Shown: positions 3,888-59,444 of the stretch, piece by piece
Numbering within the stretch: position 1 is the stretch's first letter
Layout of the letters: every line of letters starts with the position of its first letter
Source of the DNA: an uncultured delta proteobacterium
GTDB taxonomy: Bacteria; Desulfobacterota; Desulfomonilia; Desulfomonilales; Desulfomonilaceae
Assembly (NCBI GenBank): GCA_963789265.1
Contig: CAWBKB010000001.1
Coordinates: forward strand, 1,728,001-1,792,000
Length of the DNA: 64,000 bases
Reading direction: 5' to 3'
Notes under the pieces: generated by a model
The model's input: only the letters and a program-made list of their open reading frames with translations
Told to the model about the DNA's origin: nothing
Database searches by the model: none
Position numbers and translations under genes: made by a program

Positions 3888-3952
3888 ACCTGCCCGAAAA
3901 TTTGTATTCCGACAAAGGCGGCGGAATGGAATCCTTCACCGCTGAGAGCGCC

Positions 3953-4023
<71 letters not shown>

Positions 4024-4192
4024 AAATACACGATCATATTTCCGGAACGCAGTAATTAGAGCAAACTTGCATGCCTGCGTTGTTTTCGCTCCATCTCGCT
4101 GCGGCACGAACATGAATGCGATGTGCCACAACTTATGGAAATTCAGGAAAAAATAGAAGTCTCTGCGTTCTCTGCGCTCTCAGCGGTGAGTC

Positions 4193-5978: not shown

Positions 5979-6033
5979 CCAACATTATCATGTTTTCTGG
6001 ACTTAACCTCAAAAAGCAATGAAAGGAGCGAGC

Positions 6034-6777
6034 ATGCGTAACAAGCTGATGGCTGGGGTGTGGCGCTACATCCTGGGTGTTCCGCCGTTTCTCTGGGAAA
6101 AACAAATTCAGAGAGCTGTCCGCAAAGTGGAACGTTCCACTCGATTCATGACCGCGGAGCACAGGCTGGTTCATCACTACGTGGTCAAAGAGTTGCCGCG
6201 CTACAGTAAGCCCATGGCTCCGGACTTGGTGGCCCGGAGATTGAACCTAGATCCGGCGCGCACTGTGGAGATACTGGAGGACTTAGAGAGGCACCTGACC
6301 TTCGTGTACAGGGACAAGGAGGGAAAAGTGACCTGGGCTTATCCCGTGACGGTGGAAGAAACGCCCCATTCCATAACCTTCCATTCGGGAGAGGAGTTAT
6401 ACGCTGCTTGAGCGGTAGACGCGTTCGCGACGCCCTTCGTGCAGGGGCGACTCAGGGGTGACGCAGTGTCTGTGGGCGTGGTATCTGAATGCGCCCATTG
6501 CAAGCGAACCATGCGTATGGAGATCGACAGTGATATGAATTGCAGGTGTCAGGACGGGGATTGCAGCCCTATAATCTTCGTTCCTGAAGTGGATTTTCAA
6601 ACTCTGAAAGATCCAAGCATAATAGATTCGTTTTGAAAGGAGAGCGTTTTCTTCTGGTCAGAAGAACATGCTAGAGAATACCGTAGAGAGACTCACAGGG
6701 TGCGGGGCTCGTACTTCACGGCTCGACAAATAGCTTACTTGAATACGCGAATTCAGAGCGCTTTATTCGGATGGTAG
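6034..6777 (+). CDS. MerB (alkylmercury lyase)-like selenoprotein with two selenocysteines (U126, U201), 247 aa
   Basis: RBS AAGGAG. One frame with TGA at 6409 (LYAA-U-AVD vs MerB LYAWCALD) and 6634 (IDSF-U-KESVFF vs MerB RQSFCCHVHFF). AYPVT..TPH and SEC motifs. Ends at TAG 6777. Confidence 0.85.
6431..6449 (+). promoter_or_regulatory. SECIS-like hairpin for UGA 6409
   Basis: CGCCCTT-CGTGC-AGGGGCG; 26 nt separate the UGA from the loop, which has GU at positions 2-3. Confidence 0.65.
6643..6672 (+). promoter_or_regulatory. SECIS-like hairpin for UGA 6634
   Basis: AGCGT-T-TTCTTCT-GGTC-AGAAGAA-C-ATGCT; GGUC loop 19 nt after the UGA. Confidence 0.8.
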
Positions 6778-12598: not shown

Positions 12599-13204
12599 TT
12601 ATTGACCTTCGGCTGCCGGAATTGTGGCATTAACGAGGGCTGCCACGTCACGAAAGAATTTGTCGAAAGAGGGACACCGCTCGCGGCAGAGCGAGAGATC
12701 CATGCGGCTCGCAAACTCTGATTGGTGCACTGACGGCGTATATTTCATACCCTGGCAAAAGCGCTTGAGCGTTCCCTTCCCACCCAAATTCTCGGGATTG
12801 TCCGGCGTTGCCGCGTCGACTGGTATGCCCATGAATCCTCTGAAAGACTCCAGGCACCCCAGAAACCACGCCTCGAATTCCTTCTTGGCCAGGACCACCG
12901 CTACGGGCAACTGAGCGGCCTGTTTCGCACGCCTGAGCAGCTCCGGCTCCAATTTCGCCGGGCAATCTTTGTCAGCATCGAGAAGGACCAGAATAGCTCC
13001 CACATTCTTTCTTGTCCTCATCGCAAGTTCGATGGCCTTTTCCAGCTCACCCTCATTGACAATCTTGTGGCGTTTTTGTCTGATAGGTTTTTGATCCGGG
13101 TACACTGTGTACACCTTCATAAACCGTAAGATTCTACTTAGCAGAACCGGAACAGACTTCACTTCGCCGTGCCCCTCGACAATTGCTACAATCGAGCGGC
13201 TCAT
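12599..13204 (-). CDS. DUF4276-like (TOPRIM-type) protein
   Basis: IVEGHGE, LLDADKDCP, KEFEAWFL, CPSFDKF; follows an ABC-type ATPase. Confidence 0.75.
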   Translation of the reverse strand: MSRSIVAIVEGHGEVKSVPVLLSRILRFMKVYTVYPDQKPIRQKRHKIVNEGELEKAIELAMRTRKNVGAILVLLDADKDCPAKLEPELLRRAKQAAQLPVAVVLAKKEFEAWFLGCLESFRGFMGIPVDAATPDNPENLGGKGTLKRFCQGMKYTPSVHQSEFASRMDLSLCRERCPSFDKFFRDVAALVNATIPAAEGQ

Positions 13205-13209
13205 CGTTA

Positions 13210-14442
13210 TCAAACCGTTTTGTCGACAAGAGATTCATCGGATGACCGAGGACCATGAGGTGAAATTTCCGGTGCCTCGTCGTCAGGGCGTATCTCATTC
13301 ATTTTCAGGAGTTCCCCGGGAGAGTACAAGCGCTCTCGTATAACGTCGCGGCTCGATTCAGAAAGGGGGGCAATGACGGTCTGCCCTTTCTTCAAATAAA
13401 CCATGCGAATCTGAGAATCTTCTAACTCCTTTTGGTCAAGGATTTCGGGGCTATGGGTAGTTATCAAAACCTGTTTTTCATTGGAGGCTCCCATAAGGAT
13501 CTCCATGATCATTTCAAGCAGGGCAGGGTGGACCGTAGCCTCCGGTTCCTCGATGCCCACAACCTTTGGCAACGGCTGCAGCACAGAGAGGGCTAAACCC
13601 AATACTCTCAAGGTACCGTCTGACATGTCCAGGGCATCAAATTCCACAGGCTCTGTCAAACCGATATCTTGGAAAAATAACAGCTTCTCTTTATTGTCAA
13701 CTGACTTAGTAGCTACCCTATGGATCCCTGGACAGGCTTCGGCAAGAATTTTGTTCAAAAACTGAACTACAGGAGGGTACAACCGGCTCCCTCTTTCATT
13801 GATTTGTTTCAAGACCGATGTTGCATTGCTCCCATCCCGTTTAAGAAGTAACCCCGAATCGGGAATTTGAAATTCGCGCAAACTCCTGGGCTCGATAGCG
13901 TAAACCCGCATAAAATCCAGGAAAAACCAGAGCTGTTGGAACTCTTCCACTCCGGCCACCAGCCGTAAGGCTAGATTGTTTGCTGAAATATGAGGTTTGA
14001 TGCCTGGGACAGATGTCGTGAACTGGCCTCTGTCCATCAGAAATTCGGATCTGCTCCCGCCGGGGCCTTCTATGATGCAAGACTCGTACGCCACGGAGAA
14101 AGGTCGTGAAATGTCTTCGACCCAAGTATCTATTTCAAACGTATATTCGGCGGTAACATCGGATGCTAGCTCAATTGAAAGACTGAATCTTATGCCAGGA
14201 TAAGGCGCACCGGACGTAAGGTCTTTCGCGCGATTCATGACGTGCGCCCAACCACCCCTTCGATTCAGAGCCACCTCCACAGAATCGGCCAGGCATTCTT
14301 GGACAAAAGCAAGCGCATCAATGAAGTTGCTCTTTCCTGACCCGTTGGTTCCAACGAAGACTGTAAATGGTTCAAGATCGACTCTAACGTCGGACAGACT
14401 TTTGAAGTTCAATATTTCAACCGACTTTATGCGGGGAATCAT
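13210..14442 (-). CDS. AAA_21/ABC-type ATPase
   Basis: NFKS, Walker A GTNGSGKS, signature MSDGT, Walker B IEEPE, TTHSP. Confidence 0.9.
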   Translation of the reverse strand: MIPRIKSVEILNFKSLSDVRVDLEPFTVFVGTNGSGKSNFIDALAFVQECLADSVEVALNRRGGWAHVMNRAKDLTSGAPYPGIRFSLSIELASDVTAEYTFEIDTWVEDISRPFSVAYESCIIEGPGGSRSEFLMDRGQFTTSVPGIKPHISANNLALRLVAGVEEFQQLWFFLDFMRVYAIEPRSLREFQIPDSGLLLKRDGSNATSVLKQINERGSRLYPPVVQFLNKILAEACPGIHRVATKSVDNKEKLLFFQDIGLTEPVEFDALDMSDGTLRVLGLALSVLQPLPKVVGIEEPEATVHPALLEMIMEILMGASNEKQVLITTHSPEILDQKELEDSQIRMVYLKKGQTVIAPLSESSRDVIRERLYSPGELLKMNEIRPDDEAPEISPHGPRSSDESLVDKTV

Positions 14443-14553
14443 ACAAACCACTCCATGAACTTATCCGTCGTGCTCAGACCTTGAGCCTTCTCAGGCAAGA
14501 TTATGCTTCTCCCGCGGTTGTGCAAGCTTTTCCGCGACCCGTGGAAACAGTAC

Positions 14554-15181: not shown

Positions 15182-15538
15182 CTAGGTGGGAGAGTCTTCG
15201 ACCTCCAGCGAGGCTATCCGCATTTCATCACGACCTTGGAGAATCTGGAGAGATGCTGAAGAGCAGACCGGGCAGAAGGGCTGATAAACTTCCAGTTCGA
15301 ACTCTTTGCCGCACTCGAAGCAGTAAACCTTGATGGGGACGATGCTTATGTCCACCTCAGCCCCTTCGGCGATACCGCCCTTGGAAAGCACTTCAAACCC
15401 GAAAGTTATGGCTGCGGGCATTACACCTGTAAGCGCGCCGAATTCCAGGTTTATTTTTAAAATCCTTTTCGCGTTGTGGAGTTTGGCCTGCTGCTCCAGT
15501 ATATCTATGATGTTTTGTACTATGGCCATTTCGTGCAT
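15182..15538 (-). CDS. hypA: Hydrogenase maturation nickel metallochaperone
   Basis: MHE N-terminus, two CxxC (CFEC, CPVC), GRDE. Confidence 0.95.
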   Translation of the reverse strand: MHEMAIVQNIIDILEQQAKLHNAKRILKINLEFGALTGVMPAAITFGFEVLSKGGIAEGAEVDISIVPIKVYCFECGKEFELEVYQPFCPVCSSASLQILQGRDEMRIASLEVEDSPT

Positions 15539-15601
15539 GAATCGGTACCTCAACAATTTATGAAAGCTATCATTAAGGATTAGTTCCGAGTATTTCAGTT
15601 T

Positions 15602-18752: not shown

Positions 18753-18819
18753 AATCCTCTCGTATAAGTGACGCCGGCAATAGCGAACTTTGGAAACCCG
18801 CCCGAAAGAAAAATCTTCC

Positions 18820-19539
18820 ATGTACTTGAAAGAAATACGAATAAACGGCTCCGAATTTCCCATCCGCGATCGATTCCCTTTCGACATCGCAGCCTTTCAG
18901 AAAACCTGCGAAGTTGAGATTTCCTCCCCGGTGGCATTCTTTGTGGGCGAAAACGGAACCGGCAAATCTGCTCTGCTGGACGCGATAGCTCGCAGAAGCG
19001 GCTTTCTTCCCTGGGGCGGGAGCAAGATTCATCGAGTTCATAAGAACCCTTACGAGACGCAGCTCGCCAACCACATTGAGCTGATGTTCGGGCCAAGGCA
19101 TCGTTACGGGTTCCATTTTCGTGCCGAGGCCTTTTTCAACTTCGCTTCCTCCCTCGATGACATTATTCTTGACGATCCCGCCCGCGATAAGTATTACGGC
19201 GGTGGGTCATTGAATGCGCTCTCCCACGGAGAATCGTTCCTCTCCTTTTTCAAGGGCTACAGCTTTCAACTGGATGGATTGTATCTTCTCGATGAGCCGG
19301 AAGCGGCGCTTTCGCCGCAGAACCAGGCAGAGTTCGTGCGCATCATTCACGAGTCCGCTATTTCGGGAAACAGGCAGTATATCATTGCCACGCATTCCCC
19401 GATCATCTTAGGCTGTCCGGGCGGACAGATCTTCAGTTTTGACTCTCCGCCCATACGGCCTATTGAGTACCGAGAGACGGCTTCTTACTTGTTTTACAAG
19501 CAATTTTTAGCTGACCCGGACCACTTTTTTCGGCGCTGA
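18820..19539 (+). CDS. Predicted ABC-type/AAA ATPase
   Basis: GENGTGKS, RAE, LSHGESF, LLDEPEAALSP, ATHSP. Confidence 0.9.
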   Translation: MYLKEIRINGSEFPIRDRFPFDIAAFQKTCEVEISSPVAFFVGENGTGKSALLDAIARRSGFLPWGGSKIHRVHKNPYETQLANHIELMFGPRHRYGFHFRAEAFFNFASSLDDIILDDPARDKYYGGGSLNALSHGESFLSFFKGYSFQLDGLYLLDEPEAALSPQNQAEFVRIIHESAISGNRQYIIATHSPIILGCPGGQIFSFDSPPIRPIEYRETASYLFYKQFLADPDHFFRR

Positions 19540-41381: not shown

Positions 41382-42440
41382 CTATCTGAAGATGTCCAGG
41401 ACACTCTGGAGGCCCGCTCTAATTTGCGACAGCCCATCCTGGATCATCGACGTTAAGTCTAATTGCTCGCCCGTGTCCGGATAGTCACCGTCTATGACCA
41501 CCTCGACCGGTTTGTCGAGCCAGTGGTATGAACCTCTGTCGTTGTGCTTCAGTGGACCTATGCCGACCAGTTTGATCAGAGTTGACTTGAACTTGCAAGG
41601 GTCCGGCAACCTTATGCAGCCTGCCGAAATTGCCCCGTAGGCATTCGCCAGAGTTACGTGGGGCGCCGGGTCCCTCCCCGGAGTGAAGCCGTGCAAACCC
41701 AGTTCGTGATACCTCTCGCACTTGCCCTGCTCGTTACAGAGAAGTAATGGAGCGAAGAATCCACCGTATACATGCGGGATATGTTCGCCCGAAACTCCGA
41801 AAAGGACCACATCCGGGTAGCAATACACGTGATTGATGAGAAATCGCCCTTCAGGAGTGGGAGAAGAAATGTCTCCCAAACCCACGAAGGTCCTGTAGAT
41901 CTCCTCCACGGACTCATCCGGGTGAATCCCTTCGAAGGTCAGCTCGAAGTTGGATCGATCAATGTGTATTCTGAACGCAGCGAATCCGTGACGCCGAGCT
42001 TCGTCCTGGTTGTTGAGGCTCATTTCCTGCCAGTCTTTGTATAGCGGCGGGAGGCAGGGGTCATCGGGAGCTTCGAGGGGCGCGGCCGGCACTTCGGCTG
42101 CTGGAGGTGTGGCTTCCGGAAGTTCGGCTTCCGGCGGCTTGGCCGCTGGAGGTTCAACTGCTGGAGGTTTGGCTTCCGGAGGTTCGGCTTCCGGCGGCTT
42201 GACCGTTGGAGGCTCCACTGCTGCAGGCTGGGTACCGATCTCAGTCGGAGAAGGCGCGCTTGGGGCAGGTGAGGCCTCATCGGCAGGTTGTTTTTGTGTA
42301 GATGCCGCTGAATCGGGCGCTGGCACTGCGGAGTAAGTCGGAATGACCAACACGGCAACGATGAGGAGCAGCCCCAATGTGAGTGCCATTGCAAGCACAC
42401 GGGCGTTCATAGGGTTGTCTGCTCCGGCAGCCTTCTTCAT
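41382..42440 (-). CDS. L,D-transpeptidase (YkuD) family protein with Pro-rich repeat linker
   Basis: N-terminal TM, PPAVEPPAAKPPEAE repeats, TPEG, GLHG...SAGCIRL. Confidence 0.8.
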   Translation of the reverse strand: MKKAAGADNPMNARVLAMALTLGLLLIVAVLVIPTYSAVPAPDSAASTQKQPADEASPAPSAPSPTEIGTQPAAVEPPTVKPPEAEPPEAKPPAVEPPAAKPPEAELPEATPPAAEVPAAPLEAPDDPCLPPLYKDWQEMSLNNQDEARRHGFAAFRIHIDRSNFELTFEGIHPDESVEEIYRTFVGLGDISSPTPEGRFLINHVYCYPDVVLFGVSGEHIPHVYGGFFAPLLLCNEQGKCERYHELGLHGFTPGRDPAPHVTLANAYGAISAGCIRLPDPCKFKSTLIKLVGIGPLKHNDRGSYHWLDKPVEVVIDGDYPDTGEQLDLTSMIQDGLSQIRAGLQSVLDIFR

Positions 42441-42615
42441 GACGGGCTGATTGTATCCGGTCTTCCATGTCCTGTCAATGAGCGCACTAGCAGCGGGTAC
42501 CTGATGAGCCCGGCCTCAAATGATTGAAGCTAACCGCTTAGCAGACCATACCTGGGCCGAGACCAGATCAATTCTGCTGCAACCTTTCAAGTGCGCGGGG
42601 AATTGTCGGTTCCCT

Positions 42616-42754
42616 GTCATTGCGAGGAGTGAAACGACGAAGCAATCTAAACCTTAATCCAGTAATCGTCATTCCGGCGTAGGCCGGAATCCAGTCTGGA
42701 CCCCGGATCAAGTCCGGGGTGACGGTGTCATTGCTTCGCTTGGCTCGCAATGAC
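42616..42754. repeat. Nested REP cluster (GTCATTGCGAG pair enclosing GTCATTCCGG and CCCCGGATCAAGTCCGGGG palindromes)
   Basis: Outer arm identical to 32169-32201. Confidence 0.8.
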
Positions 42755-45148: not shown

Positions 45149-45550
45149 CTAATCGACTCTCTCTTCAATGGGCCAATCACCTTTTTCCTGCAGGACTTCC
45201 TTCAGGACCTTCAGAGCGCTATTCACTACCGGCATGCCGCCGTAAATTCCGCACTGAAAAATTACTTCCGCGACGTCCCGTGGATTGCATCCAACGTTTA
45301 ATGCCGCGTAGATGTGGAGTTTAAGCTCATCGGGCCTTTCCAGGACCGTCAAAGCGGCTACGGCCACGAGCTGGCGCGTGGTGTGTGGTATCTTCTCTCG
45401 AGCGTACATTTGCCCGGTTATGAATAGCGAAAGGTCTCTTGCGAGTCTTTTGTCAAAGGAGCGCCACAAGTCAAACGGTCTTTCATCCGGGAACCCTTCG
45501 AAGTAGATCTTTGCCGTCTTGGCGGTCCTAGTTTTGAGATCGTCATCCAT
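45149..45550 (-). CDS. Carboxymuconolactone decarboxylase (AhpD-like) family protein
   Basis: RQLVAVAAL..ELKLHIYAALNVG..EVIFQ..YGGMP. Confidence 0.88.
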   Translation of the reverse strand: MDDDLKTRTAKTAKIYFEGFPDERPFDLWRSFDKRLARDLSLFITGQMYAREKIPHTTRQLVAVAALTVLERPDELKLHIYAALNVGCNPRDVAEVIFQCGIYGGMPVVNSALKVLKEVLQEKGDWPIEERVD

Positions 45551-45717
45551 TGATCACCTCTTGATTCTAAGTTGGAATCGGCGCGGCGAGTCTCTGGTAT
45601 GATACACGCGATTACCCATGAATTCCACTCGACCGGCACCAACCGGCGACACCGGTGGCGACTTCCGGTGGGCTGCCTTCAGTTGTACCCATTCAGTCTG
45701 GTGGGGCACGGTTTCCG

Positions 45718-45925
45718 AAAGCGTCTCAAAACTATTCAGATGACCAGAATCGTGCCACGATAGAGGCTCATTCGTATAGTCGTCGCCCCTCACCCCAACC
45801 CTCTCCCAGAGAGAGAGGGAGCAGATCCAGGGCCGTTTTGCACTTCCCTCGCCCTCTGGGAGAGGGACACAGGGTGAGGGATTCGTGCTACGATTCCGAC
45901 CGTTTCATTGTTTTTGAGACAGTTT
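45718..45925. mobile_element. MITE, inverted homologue of 35575-35780
   Basis: GTCTCAAAA...TTTTGAGACAGTTT ends; same internal palindromes and AATCGTGCCACGAT. Confidence 0.8.
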
Positions 45926-46172: not shown

Positions 46173-48033
46173 ATGGCAAACCTTCTCGTTGATGAGCGCG
46201 ATGCTAAGTTCGTGCTTTATGAACAGCTCAACATCGAAGAACTGTGCCAATCGGAAAGATATGCGGAGTTTTCCCGAGAGATGTTCGACATGGTCCTCGA
46301 TGCGGCCCAAAAACTGGCCGAAAAGGAGCTTTTCCCAACCAATCGCGATGGCGACACCCAGGGTGTTGTCCTCGAAAATGGACAAGTTAAAGTCCCTGAA
46401 TCCTTCCACGCCGCTTACGGCCACTACTGCGAAGGCGGTTGGGCCGCGCTCCCCATCGACCAGGACAAGGGAGGGCAAGGCTTCCCGCATGTCCTGTATT
46501 GCGCCGTCACAGAGCTTTTTGTTGCCGCAAATCAGGCCCTTATGATGTACCCAGGCCTTACGATCGGTGCTGCGCGCCTCCTGGAAAAGTATGGTACCGA
46601 AGATCAGCAACGAACGTACATGGATAAAATGTACACCGGCGAATGGGCCGGCACCATGTGTTTGACGGAACCGCAGGCAGGCAGCGACGTCGGAGCGCTA
46701 CGGACCAAGGCCGTGAAGAGGCAAGACGGGAGCTATTCCATAACCGGCAGCAAGATATTCATTTCAGCCGGGGACCACGATCTTACCGAAAATATCATTC
46801 ACATGGTGTTGGCTCGGATAGAAGGAGCGCCCCCGGGAACCAAAGGGATCAGCATATTCGTGGTTCCCAAGAAGAGAATCGAAAACGGGGGGTTCGCGGA
46901 CAACGACGTGACGACAGCGGCAGCGGAAAAAAAGCTGGGTATTCATGCATCCGCGACCTGTGCGCTCAACTTCGGTGAACAGGACAACTGCATCGGGTAC
47001 CTGCTCGGGGAAGAGAACCAGGGCATGAAGATCATGTTCAACATGATGAATGAGGCCCGGCTGGCTGTTGGATTTCAAGGATTGGCCCAAGCCTCGGCCG
47101 CTTATCTGCATGCCTTGAAGTATGCCAAGGAGCGCTATCAGGGGCCTGAGATCAGTTCCATGCGGGACCCCAACTCACCTAAAGTCCCCATCTTCCAGCA
47201 TCCCGACGTGCGGCGCATGTTGATGTGGATGAAGAGCGTTACAGAGGGCATCCGGGCATTGCTCTATTACGCGGGCTATTGTGCGGATAGGCTTGTTACT
47301 GCGAAGAGTCAAGAAGAAGCTGACAGGTACCAGGGATTCCTGGACATATTGATCCCTGTTTGCAAAGCCTGGAGCTCGGATATGGGCTTCCGGGTAACTG
47401 AGCTGGCCGTCCAGATATACGGCGGCTACGGATATTGCAAAGAGTATCCGGTTGAGCAATTCCTGCGTGATGCAAAGATAGCATCTATTTATGAGGGAAC
47501 AAACGGCATTCAGGCCCTGGACCTTGTGGGCCGGAAACTCGGATACCGCCAAGGGGCCTTGTTCAACGGAATTGTTAAGGAGACCAGCGATCTTATCAAG
47601 CTCGCCCAGAAGAACTACCGCCTCAAGGACATTGTTGAACCTTTTGACGCTGCACAAAAGCAGTTGATAGAAGTCACACGTTATTTCGGCCTCAAGAGTA
47701 TTACAGAGGATTTCATGACGCCGATACTGGACGCTGACCCCGTACCTGGAGCTTTTCGGCGACGTGGCAGTCGGGTTCATGCTCCTATGGCAGGCGGTAA
47801 TCGCTGATCGTCGCCTGGAAGAGCTCTATAGCGACGCAAAGGCGGATACGTCTGAGAAGAAAGCGGAACTTTGCAAGGCTAACAGAAGCGCCGCGTTTTA
47901 CCGAGGCAAGATAGCTTCGGCGCAGTTTTTCTCCAACACCATCCTTTCTCTGGCTAAGGGGAAGGCCCGTGCGATCATGAGCGGCGATCGCTCGGCAATT
48001 GACCTCCCGGAAGAATCGTTCGCTCTATTCTAA
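46173..48033 (+). CDS. Acyl-CoA dehydrogenase (frameshift near 47737)
   Basis: MCLTEPQAGSD, KIFISAG, IYEGTNGIQ; C-terminal domain continues in another frame (TPYLELFGD...). Confidence 0.9.
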
Positions 48034-48053
48034 TCTCGATCGGAGTCTCGATT

Positions 48054-49298
48054 ATGAAAGCAAGAAAAGTCGTTTTGGTTGATGCAATACGGACCGCTTT
48101 CGGCAAGGCCGGAGAAAAGGGTATTTTCTGGAATACCCGAGCCGATGACATGGTTGTGAAGGTTATCCGTGAGCTTCTCAGGCGAAATCCTCTCGTGAAG
48201 CCGGAGATGATCGGTGAAAATGCCTGGGGAGTCTTTTGTCAAGAAAAAGACCAGGGATTGACGCTTGGAAGGACTTCAGTCATCCTTGCGGGCCTACCTG
48301 AAACTACCGCGGGATTCTCTATAGATCGCATGTGTGCCGGAGGAATGAGCGCCCTTACCACGGCCGCAGCCGAGATAGCGCTTGGCGCGTGCGATGTAGC
48401 CATCGCGGGAGGTGTCGAACACATGGGTCATCATCCCATGGGGGCAACGGCCGATCCTAACCCTCGATTTCTGACGGACAAGCTGGTCGATTCCAGTGCC
48501 ATGTCCATGGGGGAAACCGCGGAAAATCTCCACGATATGTTCCCTGAAATAACCAAGGAGATGGCGGATGAATACTCCTTGCTTTGCCAGCAAAAGGCGG
48601 CCCGAGCCGCCGAATCCGGAAAGATTCGGGAGATGATCGTCCCCATGACCGTGTACACCAAAAGTGGCTGGGTTGTCGCGGACAAAGACGAACAGCCGCG
48701 GCCGGAAACCACCCTGGAAGGGCTGGCCAAACTACGAACTCCCTTTCGGGTCATGGGAAATGTGACCGCCGGAAACTCATCGGGCTTAAACGACGGTGCA
48801 GCCGGAGCTCTCTTGATGGCGAAGGAAAAAGCCGAAGAACTTGGCATCGTACCTAGAATGCAACTCCAGGCGTTTGCGTATGCCGGGGTTAAGCCCGAAA
48901 TCATGGGCATAGGCCCGATTCCGGCCACCCATAAGGCTCTCAACATAGCAGGACTATCTATTGACGACATCGGGCTCGTTGAGCTGAACGAAGCTTTCGC
49001 AGTCCAGGCCGTGGCTTTCATGAAGGAATTCGGCCTACAATTCCCGGATGATCCTCGGATGAACATCTACGGCGGAGCAATTGCTTTCGGGCATCCCCTC
49101 GCCTCCTCAGGCGTCAGACTTGCCTGCCATCTGATGCACGGGTTTGCAGAAAGGCCGGACGTCGAGTATGGGCTGACAACTATGTGCGTGGGCCTGGGTC
49201 AGGGTGGAACAGTCGTATGGAAGAACCTTCAACGCAACGGCAACAAGGCGGAGAAAGAAGAGCACAAGGACAAGGAAAAGAAGAAGAAAAAGGAATAG
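48054..49298 (+). CDS. fadA: Acetyl-CoA C-acyltransferase (thiolase)
   Basis: DRMCAGG, NEAFA, GHPLASSG, MCVGLGQG. Confidence 0.93.
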   Translation: MKARKVVLVDAIRTAFGKAGEKGIFWNTRADDMVVKVIRELLRRNPLVKPEMIGENAWGVFCQEKDQGLTLGRTSVILAGLPETTAGFSIDRMCAGGMSALTTAAAEIALGACDVAIAGGVEHMGHHPMGATADPNPRFLTDKLVDSSAMSMGETAENLHDMFPEITKEMADEYSLLCQQKAARAAESGKIREMIVPMTVYTKSGWVVADKDEQPRPETTLEGLAKLRTPFRVMGNVTAGNSSGLNDGAAGALLMAKEKAEELGIVPRMQLQAFAYAGVKPEIMGIGPIPATHKALNIAGLSIDDIGLVELNEAFAVQAVAFMKEFGLQFPDDPRMNIYGGAIAFGHPLASSGVRLACHLMHGFAERPDVEYGLTTMCVGLGQGGTVVWKNLQRNGNKAEKEEHKDKEKKKKKE

Positions 49299-49428
49299 AC
49301 ATCTACTTCTCGGGATTACCGGTTGCCGAACCGAATAAGAGGGGGCGTTACGGCCTAATCCAACGGGCATTTGGAATCCATCAATTTCGCTGCTCCCTCT
49401 GGAGAGAGCTTGAACGAAAGGAACTATC

Positions 49429-51480
49429 ATGGCTGAAGCACCGACTTTATTCTATACGAATTACTACAATTCCCGCGTGGGGAAGATCGCCATCGTCACC
49501 ATGGATAATGGCGAAGACTACAAGAAGCCCAATACCTTCGGTGAAAAAGCGCTTGCGTCCTTGCACGAAACTATAGACAAGATCCAAGCTGACAAGGATC
49601 TGAAAGGCATGATGCTCTGCGGTAAACATTACATTTTCGCCGTGGGAGCGGATCTGATGCAGATCCCCTTTGTAAATACCTTCGAGCAGGGCCGGCGTAA
49701 CGGCGCGGCGGGCCACGCGGCCATGAAGCGGATTATGGACCTGAAGATACCTACTCTGGCTGCAATCAACGGCGCTGCACTCGGGGGAGGGCTTGAAATC
49801 GGTTTGTATTGCAACTACCGCACCGTATCCAAGGCTGTTACCGCGATAGCATTTCCCGAATGCTTCCTCGGACTTATCCCTGGCTGGGGAGGATCCACCC
49901 TCATGCCTCGGCTGATAGGTCCGGAGAAGGCATTGGAACTTATCGTGTACAACCCGATGAACCAGAATCGAATGATAGACGGCACTAAAGCCTTCCAAAT
50001 GGGAATTGCCGACAGGCTCTACGATTCCGTAGATTTTTTCGACGAATCCCTTGCGTTTCTTGAGGATCTGATTGAAGGCAAAGAAACAGTCGAGCGAAAT
50101 CAGCCCGACACGTCAAAGCTCAAGAACCTTGTTGACTCGGCCCGGAGCTTCCTGGACATGAGGGTACATGGAGCCACGCCTGCCCCTTACCGGGCCATCG
50201 AACTGATTCAAGGGGCCTGCGACTTCGATAGAAGCTTGGAAGAGTGCTTCGCAGAGGAAGACAAAGCCTTGGGCGATCTTATCAAGAGCCGCCAATGCAA
50301 AGCCGGCGTTTACAGCTTCGATCTGGTGCAACGCCGTGCGAAAAGGCCGGCCGGTCGGCCTGCGGATGTCAGTCCTCGCCCTATCAAGAAGATAGGCGTC
50401 ATTGGCGCGGGACTGATGGCTTCTCAGCTAGCCATGCTTTTCCTCAGACGTTACGGCGTTCCTGTGGTGATGAAGGACATCAAGCAAGAGTTTTTGGATA
50501 AAGGGCTCGGGTACGTCAAAGGCGAGCTGGCAGGTCAAGTTGCCAGGGGAAAAATGACTCAGGCCAGGGCGGACTATCTCTTCCGGCTTCTTATCGGGAC
50601 TCTGGACTGGGATGCGTTCGCGGATTGCGACTTCGTAATAGAGGCGGTCTTCGAAGAGATGCGCGTGAAACAGGATGTCTTTGCGCAGGCAGAAGCTGTG
50701 GTCTCTCCTACGTGCATTCTGGCCACTAACACTTCCAGTTTATCCATCACTGAGATGGCATCCCAGTTGAAGAACCCGGAACGTGTGGTGGGATTCCACT
50801 TTTTCAACCCTGTTGCAGTCCTGCCGCTCCTGGAGATCATCAAGGGAGAGAAGACTGACGATGCAACACTCGCCACAGCGTTCGAGTGCGCCAAGAAGAT
50901 CAGGAAGACCGCGATACTTGTCAAAGATTCGCCCGGCTTCCTTGTGAACAGGATTCTCACAAAATTCATAGGTGACTGTTTCGAGATCGTAGACGAAGGA
51001 GCGGATTTCGTTCAGGTGGACGACGCCGCACTCATGTTGGGGCTTCCTATGGCGCCTTTTGAGCTTTTGGCCTTGGTAGGACCGGCAGTGGGATTTCATG
51101 TTGGTGAAACCCTCCACAAGGCGTGGCCGGATCGCTTCCCCATTAACGAGCACTTCAAGAAGCTCGTCGAGGCGAAGATACCGGGGATATACCGAGGCAT
51201 GGGTCCTGGAAAGCAAGTATTACCTCAGGTGGCTGAAATCTGGAAAGACAAGGGCAACAAGGAGTTTGTAAAAGAAGAAATTCTGGATCGGCTTCTCACC
51301 AACCTGACGGTGGAGATCGATCTGATTCTCAAAGAGAAGGTTGTTGCGGACCCCAAGGACATAGATACGGCCATGATCATGGGCGCGGGGTGGCCGTTCT
51401 TCAACGGTGGGATAACCTTGTACCTGGATGTTACGGGCTATACCCCCAAAATCTTGCAGAAAGTGTTCTTCAGAATTTAG
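49429..51480 (+). CDS. fadB: Enoyl-CoA hydratase/3-hydroxyacyl-CoA dehydrogenase
   Basis: ALGGGLE, PECFLGLIPGWGG, GAGLMA, EAVFE, NTSS, HFFNP. Confidence 0.93.
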   Translation: MAEAPTLFYTNYYNSRVGKIAIVTMDNGEDYKKPNTFGEKALASLHETIDKIQADKDLKGMMLCGKHYIFAVGADLMQIPFVNTFEQGRRNGAAGHAAMKRIMDLKIPTLAAINGAALGGGLEIGLYCNYRTVSKAVTAIAFPECFLGLIPGWGGSTLMPRLIGPEKALELIVYNPMNQNRMIDGTKAFQMGIADRLYDSVDFFDESLAFLEDLIEGKETVERNQPDTSKLKNLVDSARSFLDMRVHGATPAPYRAIELIQGACDFDRSLEECFAEEDKALGDLIKSRQCKAGVYSFDLVQRRAKRPAGRPADVSPRPIKKIGVIGAGLMASQLAMLFLRRYGVPVVMKDIKQEFLDKGLGYVKGELAGQVARGKMTQARADYLFRLLIGTLDWDAFADCDFVIEAVFEEMRVKQDVFAQAEAVVSPTCILATNTSSLSITEMASQLKNPERVVGFHFFNPVAVLPLLEIIKGEKTDDATLATAFECAKKIRKTAILVKDSPGFLVNRILTKFIGDCFEIVDEGADFVQVDDAALMLGLPMAPFELLALVGPAVGFHVGETLHKAWPDRFPINEHFKKLVEAKIPGIYRGMGPGKQVLPQVAEIWKDKGNKEFVKEEILDRLLTNLTVEIDLILKEKVVADPKDIDTAMIMGAGWPFFNGGITLYLDVTGYTPKILQKVFFRI

Positions 51481-53354: not shown

Positions 53355-54281
53355 TTACGCTTCTGCAGCTTCCTTTTCCGGGACTTCCGCGGCCTTCTTG
53401 GCAGCGGCAGCAGCCTTTTTCGCGGCCTGGTCCGCCTTTATTTCCGCGACTGCCTGCGCTTGCCGCTCAGGATCGGTGTATCGGAAGATAAACTGACGGT
53501 TACAAGCCCACACACACGCTTTGGCCATTCCTTCGTCGAATTTATCGTAGTCGATCTCGATGCGGTCCTTGACCATGTTGACCACATCTTTGGCCTTTCT
53601 CGTGCAGGCCATGCAGTGAATGCACCCGGCTTTGCACACATTGCTCACCGCCTTGCCCGAATCATGGTTGCTGCAAGGAACATACGCAGTCGCATCCTTG
53701 GGAAGCAGTTGCAATACCTGTTTCGGGCAAGTCTTAACGCATATACCGCAACCGGTGCAGGCTTCAGGATCGATTACCGGCATATTGTCTTTCATGTGGA
53801 TAGCGTTGAAGGGGCACGCGGCTTCACAGTCGCCGTAACCGACGCACGCGAAATTGCACTCGTACGGGCCGCCAAACGCTATTGAAGCTGCCTGGCAACT
53901 GTCAAATCCGATGTAGGAATGCTTCCTCTTGACTTCACCGTCGTTCCGAGCACATCGAAGGAAGGAAATCACGCTGCTCGCCGCACCCGCAGCCTTGCCC
54001 GTGATCGCGGCAACCTTTTCCGCCACTTCTTGCTTCCCCGGCGCACACTTACCCGGGGGACAATTGGGATCGACGACACAGGCTTCTGCATACGATTCGC
54101 ACCCGGCGAATCCGCACGCGCCTCAATTAGCTCCAGGCAGACACGCCCTCACTGCCTCGATTTTAGGATTGACCTTTACAGCAAACTGCTTGGCCAACAG
54201 GGCCAGAGCTGCGCCTGTGAGCCCACCGAATACCGCAAAGAATATTGTTCCGATTATCGCTATGAACCAAACATTATCCAT
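53355..54281 (-). CDS. rnfB: Rnf complex subunit B, selenoprotein (U53), 308 aa
   Basis: N-terminal TM; LPGAN-TGA-GACGFAGC in frame with the downstream ferredoxin motifs (CVGYGDCEAACP, CTGCGICVKTCP); RBS GAGGTG. Confidence 0.9.
54088..54119 (-). promoter_or_regulatory. SECIS-like hairpin of rnfB
   Basis: mRNA GCGUGC-G-GAUUCGC-CGGGU-GCGAAUC-GUAUGC; loop 17 nt after the UGA. Confidence 0.8.
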
Positions 54282-54435
54282 GCTATGGCACCTCGAAAAA
54301 ACCGCGTGCTTGTGCCGCGGCATTGTGTGACGAGCGGATTTCAGGCGAATGATTCTCAGGACCGAGAAATTGCCCGCATCGGATCATCATAATCAGTTAA
54401 ACCACCTGAATCAAGTGTCCGGCCTCCAACGGGCT

Positions 54436-55392
54436 CTAAAATATTGAAAGGCCCGAGAAGCCCAGGAAGGCCAACGCGAACAACCCGGTCACTATGAAGG
54501 CAATGGGAAGCCCCTGAAAAGTTGGCGGTACCCGGCTTACCTCGAGTTTCTCTCGAACACAGGACATGAGGAACAGCGCGAGAGCAAAACCAAGCCCCGC
54601 ACCTACGCCAAGGGTCAGGCTGGCAAATGGCCCGTTGCCGCTATCCGCATTTAACAGCGGGACAGCAAGAATGATGCAGTTGGTAACGATCAGTACAAGG
54701 TAGACACCAAACCTTTTAAACAGAAAAGGGTTGACCTTTCTGAGAACTGTATCCGCTGCTTGTACAAAAATCGCCACGGTCCCGATAAACACAATGATTT
54801 TCAAAAAGTCGAGATGTAGTGTCTGCAGGACATAAGAGAAAAGGGCCCAGCACATGATTGAGCTTAACCCAATCACTATGGTGAAGGTGATTCCCATGCC
54901 TATGGCTGTTTCCTTCTTCTGAGAAACTCCGAAGAAGATGCACAATCCCAGATACTTAGTAAACACAAAGTTGTTGATCAGCATCGCCCCAAGGAAGATC
55001 GCGAACAGAACCTGAGTCTGGCTCTTCTTGACCAAAAAACCGACCCGGTTCTTCAGGATCTTGCCGCCGGAAGTGACATCCTTTGCCTCAACTATGTATT
55101 GGCTGGAGAGGTTCAACGGATCCTTGAATTTTAGTATGGCGGTTGTCTTACGAGGGCCGAGCGTGACTGATTCGACCGGGATCTTAATGTCAGGGTTGGG
55201 TTTCTCGTACGTGGAGTAGTTCGACGGATTCTTGGCCCAGGCCTCATCTACGGGAACGCCAAATGAAATTTTTATTTGTTTATCATTCTTGAATGAGCCC
55301 GTCTGAGTAGATTCTGCCAGAAGGGGGCCGCAAATCCAGAGGGATAGAGCCGCAGCTAATACTAGCTTGAGAAGATGCTTCCGTATATGCAT
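54436..55392 (-). CDS. rnfA: Rnf complex subunit A with N-terminal exported Ig-like domain
   Basis: RnfA core NNFVFTKYLGLC and LIVTNC, preceded by a signal peptide and ~100-aa beta-rich domain. Confidence 0.88.
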   Translation of the reverse strand: MHIRKHLLKLVLAAALSLWICGPLLAESTQTGSFKNDKQIKISFGVPVDEAWAKNPSNYSTYEKPNPDIKIPVESVTLGPRKTTAILKFKDPLNLSSQYIVEAKDVTSGGKILKNRVGFLVKKSQTQVLFAIFLGAMLINNFVFTKYLGLCIFFGVSQKKETAIGMGITFTIVIGLSSIMCWALFSYVLQTLHLDFLKIIVFIGTVAIFVQAADTVLRKVNPFLFKRFGVYLVLIVTNCIILAVPLLNADSGNGPFASLTLGVGAGLGFALALFLMSCVREKLEVSRVPPTFQGLPIAFIVTGLFALAFLGFSGLSIF

Positions 55393-55393
55393 G

Positions 55394-56014
55394 TCAGTGC
55401 GCTCCTCCCGACCTGGGCAGCTTGCCCGTGATCTTGTATTCAAACCAGTTGAAGGTTGCCATGATGAAGCCGATCACAAAAAAGCCACCGGCAGGCAAAA
55501 TCAACAATAAGAGGGGTCTGAATCCCAGCACGTCATAACCCCAAAGCTGACCGGCCCCGAAAAATTCTCTGATAGCCCCAATTAGAACGAGGCCGAAGCA
55601 AAAGCCTGCGCCCATGCCGACTCCATCCCAAAAAGACGGAACTAGCGGCTCTTTTGATGCAAACAGCTCAAGCCTTGAAATAATGATCGCAAAGACGACT
55701 ATCAATTTGACAAACAGGGCAACCTGTTTGTACACCGCCGGGGAAATGACCGGTAGTATCATATCGATCACTGTGACCCACAAGGCGATCACGATGACGT
55801 AAGCGGGTATTCTGATCCTGGGATGAATCCAGGACTTGAATATCGAAACCGTGCAGCTCGAGAACACTTGGACGAATAGGACCGCGATCCCCAGGAGGAG
55901 GCCGTTCTTGATGGAAGTGGTTACCGCCACGGCAGGGCACAGACTGAGAGCTAATCGGAAGATCGGATTTTCGGGAATTAATCCGTTCCACACAAGTCTT
56001 ACGTTCCGGTTCAC
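55394..56014 (-). CDS. rnfE: Rnf complex subunit E
   Basis: ENPIF..LSLCPAVAVT, IRIP, REFFG, LPAGGF. Confidence 0.92.
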   Translation of the reverse strand: MNRNVRLVWNGLIPENPIFRLALSLCPAVAVTTSIKNGLLLGIAVLFVQVFSSCTVSIFKSWIHPRIRIPAYVIVIALWVTVIDMILPVISPAVYKQVALFVKLIVVFAIIISRLELFASKEPLVPSFWDGVGMGAGFCFGLVLIGAIREFFGAGQLWGYDVLGFRPLLLLILPAGGFFVIGFIMATFNWFEYKITGKLPRSGGAH

Positions 56015-56025
56015 CTTAACCTCCC

Positions 56026-56934
56026 CTAGAATGCAACCCGCACATTTTCTTGCTTGAGAGCGTCGGTTAATATGCCAATCCGATACGCAAACTTTCTGAC
56101 CGTACTCTTTACTCCGCGAGTCACAGCGCGGCTTGATATGGTCGCACCGGTCAAGGCATATATATTCTGTTTTGCGTACTTTTTCTTTGTGTCGCGAATC
56201 TGATCCGGCGTGAGATGCTCCTGCTTGGCTTTCTCGGGCTCAAGAACGCTGAGATAGTCGGCAGGCAACGGCTCTTTTATAACTTTGAGAGTCTTCAAGA
56301 CCTCGAGGGTCTTCCCCACAAATTGATTTCTGAAGTAGCGATGCTCTATTCCCGCTCCCAGCCCAGGATCCTCTTCGGAGGAGATAATAGCCACACCTGT
56401 GACCGCTAATTCCGGGTCAAGGGAAACCATCATCTTGATGAACGTCTTAAAACCCTGTGTCACCCCCGGGATCACATATCCAAGGCGTTTGCCCCCGAGG
56501 TCCGCAATTGACAGGGTTTCCGTGTAGGTGGCCTTGGAGCCTTTAGGCAGGGCTTTCTCGATCGCGGCGTCCCTGGTGCCCTTCTCAGCCAATTCCGCAG
56601 CACTAGCCGAGATGGGGATTATCTTGTCCGGCTCACCCGAGAGGTCGATTTCCACCAGGCCAAATCCCTTTTCCTTAAGCGGAAGCAGGTAGCCCAAGAC
56701 TGTAGTCCCTTTGCTATCTGTGATTACATACCGGTAAACGTCAAAGATTTTGAGGTCATTCGGTATCTTGGTACCGGCGCCGTAGCCGAGGAGGCTCTGA
56801 ACCGTCTCTTTTGTCTGTCTTGCCTCGTTTTCCTTACGCAAGCGTTCCGTCTTGGCGTACACGAAGCCCAATATCGAGGCTGCGGCAAGGCACACTATGG
56901 TCAAACTAGCAGTGATCTTGAGAATATCTTTCAT
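56026..56934 (-). CDS. rnfG: Rnf complex subunit G
   Basis: N-terminal anchor, EDPGLG, FMN-binding LTGATISS. Confidence 0.9.
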   Translation of the reverse strand: MKDILKITASLTIVCLAAASILGFVYAKTERLRKENEARQTKETVQSLLGYGAGTKIPNDLKIFDVYRYVITDSKGTTVLGYLLPLKEKGFGLVEIDLSGEPDKIIPISASAAELAEKGTRDAAIEKALPKGSKATYTETLSIADLGGKRLGYVIPGVTQGFKTFIKMMVSLDPELAVTGVAIISSEEDPGLGAGIEHRYFRNQFVGKTLEVLKTLKVIKEPLPADYLSVLEPEKAKQEHLTPDQIRDTKKKYAKQNIYALTGATISSRAVTRGVKSTVRKFAYRIGILTDALKQENVRVAF

Positions 56935-56960: not shown

Positions 56961-57992
56961 CTATTTTACGGCCGCGACGGGCGCCTGCTTCGGCGGAGCG
57001 AATCTCTTCGGCTTGAACCATTCATCAAGGGCCGGAGTAAGGCAGTTCATCAGTAAAATGGCGTAGCAAACCCCTTCTGGATAGCCACCTTTAAGGCGAA
57101 TGACCACCGTAAGGACACCTACACCGATACCAAAGACGACCTGAGCGCTCTTGAGCGTGGGAGAAGTGACATAGTCGGTGCACATAAAGAAAGCGCCCAG
57201 CATGAGACCACCTGATAGCATATAAATGAGGGGATGGCCTGTGAACCAAGTCTCTCCGCCGAAGATCCAACTGAGAATACCCACAGTAGCTATAGTCGAA
57301 ACTGGAATATGCCAGGTTATGATACCCCGGGCCAAAAGAAACAGGCCCCCAAGAAGGATCAGCACAGCGGATGTTTCCCCGATGCATCCCGGCCTCAAGC
57401 CGATGAAAAAATTATGATAAATAGTCGAGAGACCTCCGAACTGCTCCGTGAGTGCGTGGAAACCATAATGCCTCAATACGTACAACGGCGTAGCGGTTGA
57501 AACCGCATCCAACCCTTTCACGTAGATGTCCAGAGGAGCTTTTGCCCAGTTCACCGGCGGTATCCAGGCAGAGGTCATATACACAGGAAAGGAGGCAGTG
57601 AGAAGCGCGCGTCCCACAAGAGCGGGGTTCCAAACGTTGAATCCCAGGCCCCCCACCAATTCTTTGTTGATGAAGATTGCGCCGACAGCTCCGATTATCG
57701 GTAGCCAATACGGCACTCCCGGCGGTATCACGAAGGCCATCAAAATGCCGGTTAGAACCGCACTCCCGTCACTGACGGTCACAGCTCTTCCGAGTGCCTT
57801 CGAAGAGATCGCTTCGACCACCACGCACGAGATGACGCTCACAAGGGTGATGAACAGCGCTCTGAGGCCAAAGTTGTAAATGGACAACAGCATTACCGGA
57901 ATCAGGGTCGCGGACACGGTCCACATGATTTCGGCAGTGGTTCTCCCCATTCGTATGTGAGGAGAAACCGAAACAGCCCATTGGGGGCCCAA
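56961..57992 (-). CDS. rnfD: Rnf complex subunit D (start uncertain)
   Basis: SPHIR, GGLGFNVWNPA, STATPL, GCIGETS, TDYVTSP, GYPEG. Confidence 0.93.
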   Translation of the reverse strand: MGPQWAVSVSPHIRMGRTTAEIMWTVSATLIPVMLLSIYNFGLRALFITLVSVISCVVVEAISSKALGRAVTVSDGSAVLTGILMAFVIPPGVPYWLPIIGAVGAIFINKELVGGLGFNVWNPALVGRALLTASFPVYMTSAWIPPVNWAKAPLDIYVKGLDAVSTATPLYVLRHYGFHALTEQFGGLSTIYHNFFIGLRPGCIGETSAVLILLGGLFLLARGIITWHIPVSTIATVGILSWIFGGETWFTGHPLIYMLSGGLMLGAFFMCTDYVTSPTLKSAQVVFGIGVGVLTVVIRLKGGYPEGVCYAILLMNCLTPALDEWFKPKRFAPPKQAPVAAVK

Positions 57993-58118: not shown

Positions 58119-59444
58119 TCAGCCGTGCTTTTTTATTTGTATTTTGGCCAGCCTGGCAAACTGGACCAACGGACGCTTCGCAGGACATACATACGCACAG
58201 CACCCGCATTCAAAGCAATCAAATACGCCGAATTTCTCAGTCAGGTGCCCCTTGCCTGCTTCCACATAGATTGCTACTTCTTTTGGTAAAAGCCCCATCG
58301 GACAAGCTTCCAAACACCAACCACAATGGATGCACGGCCCATAGGCGCTAACATCCGTCTCTTTCTTATTCAAGAACAACACCCCGGACGTTGTCTTGGT
58401 GATTGGAACGTCCAGCGTAGACATAGCGAATCCCATCATCGGGCCGCCTGAAACTATCTTCAAAAGATCTTTGGTGGTACCGCCCAGATAGGCCACCACA
58501 TCGGAAAGCAGGGTACCGACCTTCACTTTCAGGTTGGCCTGTCGATTTATGGCTCTTCCCGAGATGGTTGCAACTTTCTCATACAAGGGCTTATTCATAG
58601 CGGCGGCTTCAAATACAGCGAGAGTCGTGGAAATATTCTGAACTATCACGCCCACGTCAAACGGAAGGCCACCACCGGGAACTGATCGCTTCGTAAGCGA
58701 GTAAATGAGCTGTTTCTCCGATCCCTGGGGATACTTTACCCTCATGCCCTGAATCGCGACAGTTAAATCATCATAACGTGAAGCATCTTTGGCAGCCTTA
58801 CTCATTGCGTTTATCGCATCAGCTTTGTTCAGCTCTATCCCGATGATCCCGCGTTTTATTCCAAGGATCCTGAGGAGGATCTTGGCCCCCGCCACCACCT
58901 TGTCCGGGTATTCCAGCATGAGCCGATGGTCTGTGGTCAGGTAGGGCTCACATTCTGCACCATTGAGCACTAGAACATCGACCTTCGCGGTAGGGGGAGG
59001 TGAAAGCTTAACATGGGTGGGAAATCCGGCTCCTCCCAGTCCCACTATTCCGGCGTCCTTGACCCGGGCCAAAAGCTGCTCGGGAGTTAATTTACGCCAG
59101 TCCTCCACCTCGTATTTCCTGGGCGGCGCGGCCGGGTCTCGCTCGATGATTACGGCATCACATCGAACCATTGTAGGATGAGGACGAGGCTCTATTGCCT
59201 TTACCACGCCGGTGACGCTGCTGTGAATGGCGGCACCAAGCGCTTTTTCAACCACGCCAATGACCTCCCCCTCCTGCACTTCTTGCTTCTTCTTGACAAC
59301 CGGCTGGGCAATCGCGCCAAAATGCATGGACAAGGGGAGAACGACCTGGTCGGGAGGCGGCATCTCCTCGATCGCAAGATGTTCCGTTAGTTCCTTATGT
59401 TCTGCGGGATGCACCCCGCCTTTGGGGAAAGTCGATCCTGCCAT
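58119..59444 (-). CDS. rnfC: Rnf complex subunit C
   Basis: GGVHP, GLGGAGFP, NGAECEP, GGPMMG, two 4Fe-4S motifs. Confidence 0.95.
   Translation of the reverse strand: MAGSTFPKGGVHPAEHKELTEHLAIEEMPPPDQVVLPLSMHFGAIAQPVVKKKQEVQEGEVIGVVEKALGAAIHSSVTGVVKAIEPRPHPTMVRCDAVIIERDPAAPPRKYEVEDWRKLTPEQLLARVKDAGIVGLGGAGFPTHVKLSPPPTAKVDVLVLNGAECEPYLTTDHRLMLEYPDKVVAGAKILLRILGIKRGIIGIELNKADAINAMSKAAKDASRYDDLTVAIQGMRVKYPQGSEKQLIYSLTKRSVPGGGLPFDVGVIVQNISTTLAVFEAAAMNKPLYEKVATISGRAINRQANLKVKVGTLLSDVVAYLGGTTKDLLKIVSGGPMMGFAMSTLDVPITKTTSGVLFLNKKETDVSAYGPCIHCGWCLEACPMGLLPKEVAIYVEAGKGHLTEKFGVFDCFECGCCAYVCPAKRPLVQFARLAKIQIKKHG

Follow-up and report, generated by a model that had tools for sequence, protein, structure and literature searches.

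A probable selenocysteine at the first FdI cluster-ligand position of RnfB in Desulfomonilaceae

The Rnf complex is the main ferredoxin:NAD+ ion pump of many anaerobes. Selenocysteine (Sec) stands at or near a redox metal centre in formate dehydrogenase (Mo/W), [NiFeSe] hydrogenase (Ni), VhuD and HdrA. We examined rnfB at 53355..54281 on the minus strand of a 64-kb stretch of DNA (the window; contig CAWBKB010000001.1) from an uncultured, sulfate-reducer-like member of the Desulfomonilaceae, in which a single in-frame TGA falls on the first cysteine of a cluster-binding motif. In the parts of PMC9588780 covered here, RnfB is described as a transmembrane helix (residues 1-29), a small, highly mobile FdI domain (residues 40-90) and a globular FdII+III portion with five more clusters. 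The FdI motif CxxC...C...x17C binds a [4Fe-4S] cluster, RnfB-1. Ferredoxin docks at the distal RnfB-6, with RnfB-1 as a proposed swinging link from RnfB-2 to the RnfA/E metal centre (PMC9588780). A 2025 review, in its covered part, gives the same shuttle account, with the RnfA/E centre as a [2Fe-2S] cluster (PMC12174285).

A Sec form of this protein family is already on record. In Table 1 of their 2026 review, Zhang et al. include NCBIfam family NF005503 in a Sec form with a UxxC motif (PMC13188914), and RefSeq holds it with WP_258165141.1 as representative; PMC13188914 was the only publication found that mentions WP_258165141. The covered text of that review assigns the family no function and uses the word Rnf 0 times, and neither the text nor the four supplements of the cited source of the entry, GOS 2008 (PMC2398784), contain the terms Rnf, Fe-S or 4Fe-4S. 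The window RnfB fits the catalogued family by its match to NF005503 and by its one Sec in a UxxC motif (U53-G-A-C56); the protein has several CxxC motifs, and window and catalogue forms were matched by family model and UxxC, not by aligned column. The novelty that the initial annotation had left to be checked against surveys is thus largely lost to the entry in PMC13188914, and the window rnfB, on the well-supported Sec reading, is a further member of a catalogued, uncharacterised selenoprotein family. A 2016 survey lists, in the part covered, an RnfC family without RnfB (PMC5029168). That selenoprotein is also an Rnf subunit but differs in subunit and motif, and the window RnfC is without an in-frame TGA. 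In the literature covered, outside which subscription literature lies, we found no paper on a Sec-containing RnfB, its FdI position, its distribution or its selenocysteine insertion sequence (SECIS). Added here are the identification of the catalogued family as the RnfB of a complete Rnf operon, the assignment of the putative Sec to the first ligand of the mobile FdI cluster, a Cys/Sec interchange repeated across two orders, and a candidate SECIS built on a coding palindrome.

Formate dehydrogenase, [NiFeSe] hydrogenase, VhuD and HdrA likewise have Sec for Cys in anaerobe energy metabolism, with Cys homologues in relatives. The partner of Sec in formate dehydrogenase, [NiFeSe] hydrogenase and HdrA is Mo, W, Ni or a Cys-Sec bridge, whereas a [4Fe-4S] cluster is expected in RnfB. 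Sec197 of HdrA, as described in the covered part of a cryo-electron microscopy study of the M. maripaludis Hdr-Vhu-Fwd complex, forms a Cys-Sec bridge and is a proposed electron relay, not a cluster ligand (PMC13518236). As a [4Fe-4S] ligand, Sec has so far been inferred from Cys homologues, according to the covered text of PMC13188914, and no natural Sec ligand of such a cluster shown by experiment is described in the literature covered. The solved Cys-type RnfB chains of C. tetanomorphum (7zc6_B), A. woodii (9eri_B) and A. vinelandii (8ahx_B) share the architecture, the LPGANCGxCG column and the operon of the window protein. They differ in having Cys where the window has UGA, and the similarity is at family level only (E 7e-54, 1.5e-48 and 2e-17, respectively).

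The window rnfB is a single frame from ATG at 54281 to TAA at 53357-53355, with 308 sense codons and exactly one in-frame TGA, codon 53 (54123..54125, minus), here read as Sec. The N-terminal peptide is MDNVWFIAIIGT... and continues as RACLPGAN-U-GACGFAGCESYAEACVVDPNCPPGKCAPGK...; the immediate surroundings of the TGA read ...RACLPGAN-U-GACGFAGCESYAEAC.... When the frame was re-read, the coordinates, the single frame and the peptide quoted in the initial annotation (LPGAN-TGA-GACGFAGC) all proved correct. Genetic code table 11 splits the gene into a 5' open reading frame (ORF) up to the TGA and a GTG-started 223-aa ORF (53355..54026). The former is listed as 54123..54323 (66 aa, from an upstream in-frame ATG) and has 52 residues from the proposed start at 54281. 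Scored with C in place of U, the protein reached 309.8 bits against NF005503 (RnfABCDGE type electron transport complex subunit B; cutoff 252) and 71.9 bits against TIGR01944 (cutoff 68.7). Pfam places FeS (PF04060) at residues 48-80 and Fer4 domains at 145-190, and residues 14-228 align with 7zc6_B and 9eri_B. A hydrophobic N-terminal segment (residues ~5-30; 54192..54269, minus) aligns with the N-terminal part of the same two chains and would serve as membrane anchor. Nearest database proteins are 67-85% identical and labelled Desulfomonile tiedjei or Desulfomonilaceae. By sequence, then, the product is a full-length RnfB of the usual architecture, with membrane anchor, small mobile FdI domain and larger poly-ferredoxin domain, and with U rather than C as the first residue of the ligand motif. 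Binding of [4Fe-4S] clusters and electron transfer from ferredoxin are predicted for it.

The residue-53 column is Cys in full-length homologues (LPGANCGACG) and in all three solved chains. An alignment of the window RnfB with 15 full-length relatives (A2) was used to scan one genome per GTDB species, and the best 80 of 360 relatives were kept; all locus counts rest on these 80. At the 79 loci reaching the site, the codon was TGA in 16 and TGC/TGT in 63. A motif search located the site in 66 loci (11 TGA, 55 TGC/TGT); the other 14 were read by eye, one (L060) stopping short of the site and the remaining 13 comprising five TGA and eight Cys codons. The homologue comparison proposed in the initial annotation thus yielded the anticipated Cys/Sec interchange at the same codon. 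Eleven of the TGA loci are of Desulfomonilaceae type, four of them 90-96% identical to the window (L001-L004) and seven 75-78% (L030, L033, L036, L044, L045, L049, L058). Five are of Desulfobacterales type at 42-50% identity (L063, L064, L065, L067, L070), including the finished isolate genome of Desulfonema magnum 4be13 (L065; NZ_CP061800.1). Complete ORFs of 305-309 codons with an ATG start and a TGA only at that codon were present in 10 of the 11 family loci. Among the Desulfobacterales forms, four of five have 294-295 codons and L067 ends at a contig edge.

Selection was compared between nine pairs of Sec forms, where the synonymous rate (dS) was defined. The ratio of nonsynonymous to synonymous rates (dN/dS) was 0.06-0.20 for codons 1-52, with the same range for the N-terminal hydrophobic segment, and 0.03-0.13 for codons 54-85. 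Purifying selection on either side of the TGA argues that both pieces are translated. The gene is the last of an intact rnfCDGEAB operon, Pfam identifying rnfC, D, G, E and A immediately ahead of it in the same orientation, and rnfCDGEA precede rnfB in 11 of 11 family Sec loci (L045 has lost rnfC at its contig end). Sixteen TGA loci, intact ORFs, purifying selection and the upstream rnf genes together exclude an error, a pseudogene or a simple split gene for practical purposes. Reassignment of UGA in the genetic code was rejected, as TGA terminates ordinary window genes such as rnfC, which has zero in-frame TGA codons and an ordinary TGA as its stop.

A SECIS-like hairpin follows the UGA. Its core (54094..54112, minus) has a stem of seven Watson-Crick pairs (GAUUCGC/GCGAAUC) and a 5-nt loop, CGGGU. 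The 7-bp perfect stem and loop described in the initial annotation were confirmed; the 17 nt given there as the distance to the hairpin is the distance to the loop, the stem itself beginning after a spacer of 10 nt. The 21-nt core segment has a minimum free energy (MFE) of -9.3 kcal/mol. Bacterial SECIS elements, according to the covered text of PMC13188914, have a loop of 3-9 nt, a stem of 4-16 bp, a G in the first two loop positions, a UGA-to-loop distance of 16-37 nt and an MFE of -7.5 kcal/mol or lower. The window hairpin lies within every one of these limits (5 nt, 7 bp, CGGGU, 17 nt, -9.3 kcal/mol). It differs from the bacterial consensus in that its stem is a coding palindrome nearly present already in Cys forms, and in having no Rfam family. 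The extended lower stem (54080..54123, minus), also claimed earlier, is predicted in the MFE structure of the window sequence but is weakly supported across genomes: pairs 7-38, 8-37, 10-35 and 11-34 are invariant, and 9-36 and 12-33 are each unpaired in 10 of 16 rows.

The palindrome arises from the peptide G-F-A-G-C-E-S, encoded by the near-palindrome GGA UUC GC / GC GAA UC; the wobble positions of Ala and Gly, with the initial U of the Cys codon, form the N-G-G-R-U loop. A perfect 7-bp stem was found in 12 of 12 family Sec forms and 2 of 48 Cys forms (Fisher 6.5e-11, relatedness ignored). Stem codons are fixed in the window and its 11 family Sec loci (GGA, TTC, GCN, GGR, TGC, GAA, TCN), and the loop wobble sites vary within N-GG-R-U (CGGGU in nine, UGGAU in two, AGGGU in one). 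In the 48 Cys forms the corresponding codons vary freely (GGA/GGG/GGT/GGC, TTC/TTT/TAC/TAT, TGC/TGT, GAA/GAG). The Desulfobacterales Sec forms carry the hairpin at the same place as GGCUUCGC-CGGGU-GCGAAGCC. There, C-G takes the place of an A-U pair: one arm of the stem has a synonymous substitution in its Gly codon, and in the other Ser has become Ala. Aligning all 17 Sec forms gave 16 distinct rows. The hairpin was conserved in 17 of 17 forms and the seven upper pairs were paired in 16 of 16 rows; at pair 15-31, 12 rows have A-U and four have C-G, and at pair 18-28 there are 14 rows with C-G and two with U-G. The covariation score was reached by none of 500 shuffles.

The distribution of Cys and Sec forms was followed on a maximum-likelihood tree of 62 RnfB rows (quick method; support by the Shimodaira-Hasegawa-like approximate likelihood ratio test, SH-aLRT, only), with the Sec column excluded. 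Three Desulfovibrio/Desulfarculales-type rows served as the root; L058 and four Halanaerobium rows, whose translations were incomplete, were left out, and the five Desulfobacterales Sec forms stand outside the tree. Six Cys/Sec state changes were needed, of which at least three are forced by well-supported branches. One Sec clade, with support of 99, unites the window with L001-L004. Within the Desulfomonilaceae, Cys and Sec forms have therefore been interchanged several times, and the Sec form occurs in Desulfobacterales as well. Two Cys forms stand within or beside Sec clades. L024 (TGT; L024:6157-6204) is sister to the Sec form L030, has a hairpin identical to it and is one of the two Cys forms with a perfect stem. 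L042 (TGT; L042:6157-6204) is nested in the Sec clade L036/L044/L045 and its hairpin differs by one G-U wobble. Both are likely recent Sec-to-Cys reversals, the direction being read from the tree and the retained hairpins. They provide natural material for Cys/Sec comparison, with L042 (Cys) and L044 (Sec) an especially close pair.

Three other explanations of the TGA were weighed against Sec at a cluster-ligand position. It is highly improbable that an error of sequencing or assembly produced it, or that a Cys-type rnfB was recently inactivated by mutation: the assembly is of metagenome type and one related Sec locus is frameshifted, but the same TGA recurs in 16 other independently assembled genomes, one a finished isolate, and selection is purifying on either side of it. 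Other inactivating lesions in the operon, which the initial annotation had named as evidence that would count against Sec, were found neither in rnfB nor in rnfCDGEA. If the UGA were a real stop, or read through by near-cognate tRNAs alone, RnfB would be a truncated protein begun at GTG 54026, and the 52-residue membrane peptide might or might not be made separately. A 223-aa GTG ORF does exist under table 11, and at least ten truncated entries are deposited among the matches listed: P0067 and P0088, the window's own (223 aa each); P0095 (224 aa); P0097 (221 aa); and, with other lengths, P0085, P0092-P0094, P0100 and P0101. Such a product would be without membrane anchor and FdI, although FdI is argued to be necessary for reaching RnfA/E in the covered text of PMC9588780. 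Residues 54-85, which hold the other three ligands and lie upstream of the GTG, evolve at the dN/dS of 0.03-0.13 given above; only TGA forms have the hairpin fixed at synonymous sites; and the TGA sits exactly on the Cys column in 17 independent sequences. We regard truncation as quite unlikely.

A third possibility accepts Sec insertion and assigns residue 53 another task. Sec53 might be redox-active, in a selenylsulfide or as a relay with C47, C56, C68 or C74, while another Cys completes the cluster. Extra cysteines at positions 47, 68 and 74 lie close to the motif in the window RnfB, C68 is specific to the window clade (the window and L001-L004), and Sec197 of HdrA offers a precedent in the covered account of PMC13518236. 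The column of U53, however, is Cys in 63 of 63 non-TGA loci reaching the site and in the three solved RnfB chains; C68 is absent from the Sec loci L030, L033, L036, L044, L045, L049 and L058 and from the five Desulfobacterales forms; and C47 is Ala in some Cys forms (L012, L014, L017). This arrangement is unlikely, if less so than truncation or error. As side observations, residue 68 (codon 54080..54078) is Cys in the window and L001-L004 (AEACV) and Val in most other forms (AEAVV), and L054 and L061 have a Cys one position after it.

Sec at the first cluster-ligating Cys, as first proposed for this locus, is favoured by the same-codon interchange, the intact ORFs, the dN/dS values, the fixation of the hairpin, one compensatory change and the operon context. 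Several results weigh against it. The 60 nt after the UGA have a folding energy of -21.9 kcal/mol, a value equalled or bettered by 41 of 200 shuffles (z = -0.82); the single-sequence fold being no better than chance, the significance of the hairpin comes only from the cross-genome comparison. In that comparison, the Fisher test ignores kinship and the tree forces just 3 to 6 state changes, the palindrome comes partly from the peptide itself (15 of 48 Cys forms are fully paired if G-U is allowed, 2 of 48 perfectly), and the covariation amounts to essentially a single event, the divergence of the two orders. Rfam, a library of described and curated families, gave 0 matches over 53900-54300 at E up to 10. 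The Sec-form rnfB of L058 is frameshifted after ~102 codons; this frameshift (L058:6001-6850) could be an assembly indel error or a real lesion. No selA, selB, selD or tRNA-Sec was found within the 64-kb window (0 tRNAs; 47 proteins against Pfam), and the 11 family Sec loci also held 0 tRNAs. Selenium ligation of the cluster, finally, is read purely from alignment to Cys ligands. Taking both sides together, we hold with good confidence that rnfB encodes a selenoprotein in which UGA codon 53 specifies Sec with the aid of a SECIS hairpin.

The FdI cluster-binding motif of the window protein, U53-x2-C56-x4-C61-x17-C79 (54045..54125, minus; read from the translation), has C56, C61 and C79 invariant in alignment A2. 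Residue 53 would accordingly be the first of four ligands of the [4Fe-4S] cluster RnfB-1, the last cytoplasmic station before RnfA/E. The initial annotation had placed the selenium-ligated cluster on the ferredoxin-facing Rnf subunit. The subunit is indeed RnfB, but the affected cluster is the membrane-side shuttle RnfB-1, not the ferredoxin-docking RnfB-6.

In the mechanism we propose, UGA codon 53 would be recoded as Sec by SelB and Sec-tRNA recruited by the hairpin 10 nt downstream, as the hairpin and its conservation suggest. By homology to the Cys forms, Sec53 would replace the first of the four FdI ligands. Electrons would then be carried one at a time by the FdI cluster between RnfB's chain of cytoplasmic clusters and the [2Fe-2S] centre that RnfA/E hold in the membrane. 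A working Rnf in the carrier organisms would depend on selenium supply and on the Sec machinery. No second close rnfB copy occurs in the genomes behind the 80 kept loci (no whole-genome shotgun prefix appears twice; distant paralogues are possible among the other 280 matches), so Rnf should depend on selenium. As the codons for G-F-A-G-C-E-S/A already form a hairpin, a SECIS would need synonymous tuning only, which on the Sec reading would make the swap easy. On balance we lean, with less assurance than for the selenoprotein itself, towards a repeated natural Cys-to-Sec swap at the first FdI ligand that puts a selenium-ligated [4Fe-4S] cluster at the electron entry to membrane Rnf, is eased by a ready-made coding hairpin and makes Rnf energy conservation selenium-dependent. 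What a selenolate ligand would do to the potential, the rate of electron transfer or robustness towards oxygen is a matter of speculation.

Use of Sec by the lineage has indirect support. In the covered part of its supplement, PMC5029168 scores Desulfomonile tiedjei DSM 6799 as SelD+ and Sec+ and credits it with 28 known selenoproteins. The window also contains a MerB-like ORF (6019..6777, plus) with in-frame TGAs at 6409 and 6634, in the peptides ...ELYAA-U-AVDAF... and ...IIDSF-U-KESVFFWSEEHA.... It matched SaoL NF040728 and MerB NF009710 at E ~1e-12, under both cutoffs, and a PDB sequence search gave 0 matches at E up to 0.01. A hairpin with a 7-bp stem and the loop GGUC stands 19 nt downstream of the second TGA. 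Table S3 of PMC5029168, in the part covered, counts 'Organic mercuric lyase MerB2' among its selenoprotein families. The ORF is probably a second indication, of this known type, that the genome uses Sec; no description of two Sec residues in one MerB-like protein was met in the literature covered. In-frame TGAs at 45149-45793, 41382-42620 and 3036-4037 were rejected as Sec sites, each lying in non-conserved upstream sequence; the CMD domain of the 45149-45793 ORF begins well past its TGA. The C-terminal part of another long frame obtained with TGA read as U (15182..15560, minus) has what we take to be a resemblance to HypA, involved in hydrogenase nickel insertion (MHEMAIVQNIID...CxxC...CPxC). 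An AAA_21/AAA_15 ATPase with a DUF4276 neighbour (12599..14451, minus) and a second AAA_15/AAA_21 fragment (18790..19539, plus) look like candidate defence or toxin-antitoxin-type pairs.

The remaining operon genes, all on the minus strand, were assigned by Pfam. rnfC (58119..59444) has the RnfC_N, Complex1_51K and SLBB domains and scores 506.6 bits with TIGR01945. It is followed by rnfD (56961..57992; NQR2_RnfD_RnfE PF03116, E 7e-109), rnfG (56026..56934; FMN_bind PF04205), rnfE (55394..56014; PF02508, E 3e-52) and rnfA (54436..55392), in which Rnf-Nqr PF02508 covers residues 147-332 of a 335-aa ORF whose start was placed at the ATG giving MHIRKH.... RnfA (region 54436..55443, minus) has an N-terminal extension of ~125 residues, especially within 55005..55392, that opens with a signal- or lipoprotein-like segment, MHIRKHLLKLVLAAALSLWICGPLLA..., and is unusual for a normally compact membrane subunit. 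The extension is conserved and in frame in 11 of 11 related Sec loci at 51-85% identity and is without a Pfam match. Past an amino-acid permease gene, a few kb distant from the rnf operon and running the opposite way, lie beta-oxidation genes for an acyl-CoA dehydrogenase, a thiolase and a fused enoyl-CoA hydratase/3-hydroxyacyl-CoA dehydrogenase (46173..51480, plus). A role for Rnf in fatty-acid oxidation would be consistent with these nearby genes.

Gene callers split the Sec-type rnfB, and truncated entries of 202-254 aa are present in the protein collection; Rnf may consequently be scored as defective in metabolic reconstructions of these metagenome-assembled genomes. Close Cys/Sec pairs and a cultured carrier, Desulfonema magnum 4be13, open the question to experiment. 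If Sec is indeed inserted at this position, pairs of the L042/L044 type would be ready natural experiments on a selenolate ligand in an Fe-S cluster, and RnfB would be among the few natural cases in which selenium rather than sulfur is expected on a [4Fe-4S] cluster. With Sec at this Fe-S ligand, energy conservation would then be bound to the supply of selenium in Desulfomonilaceae and some Desulfobacterales.

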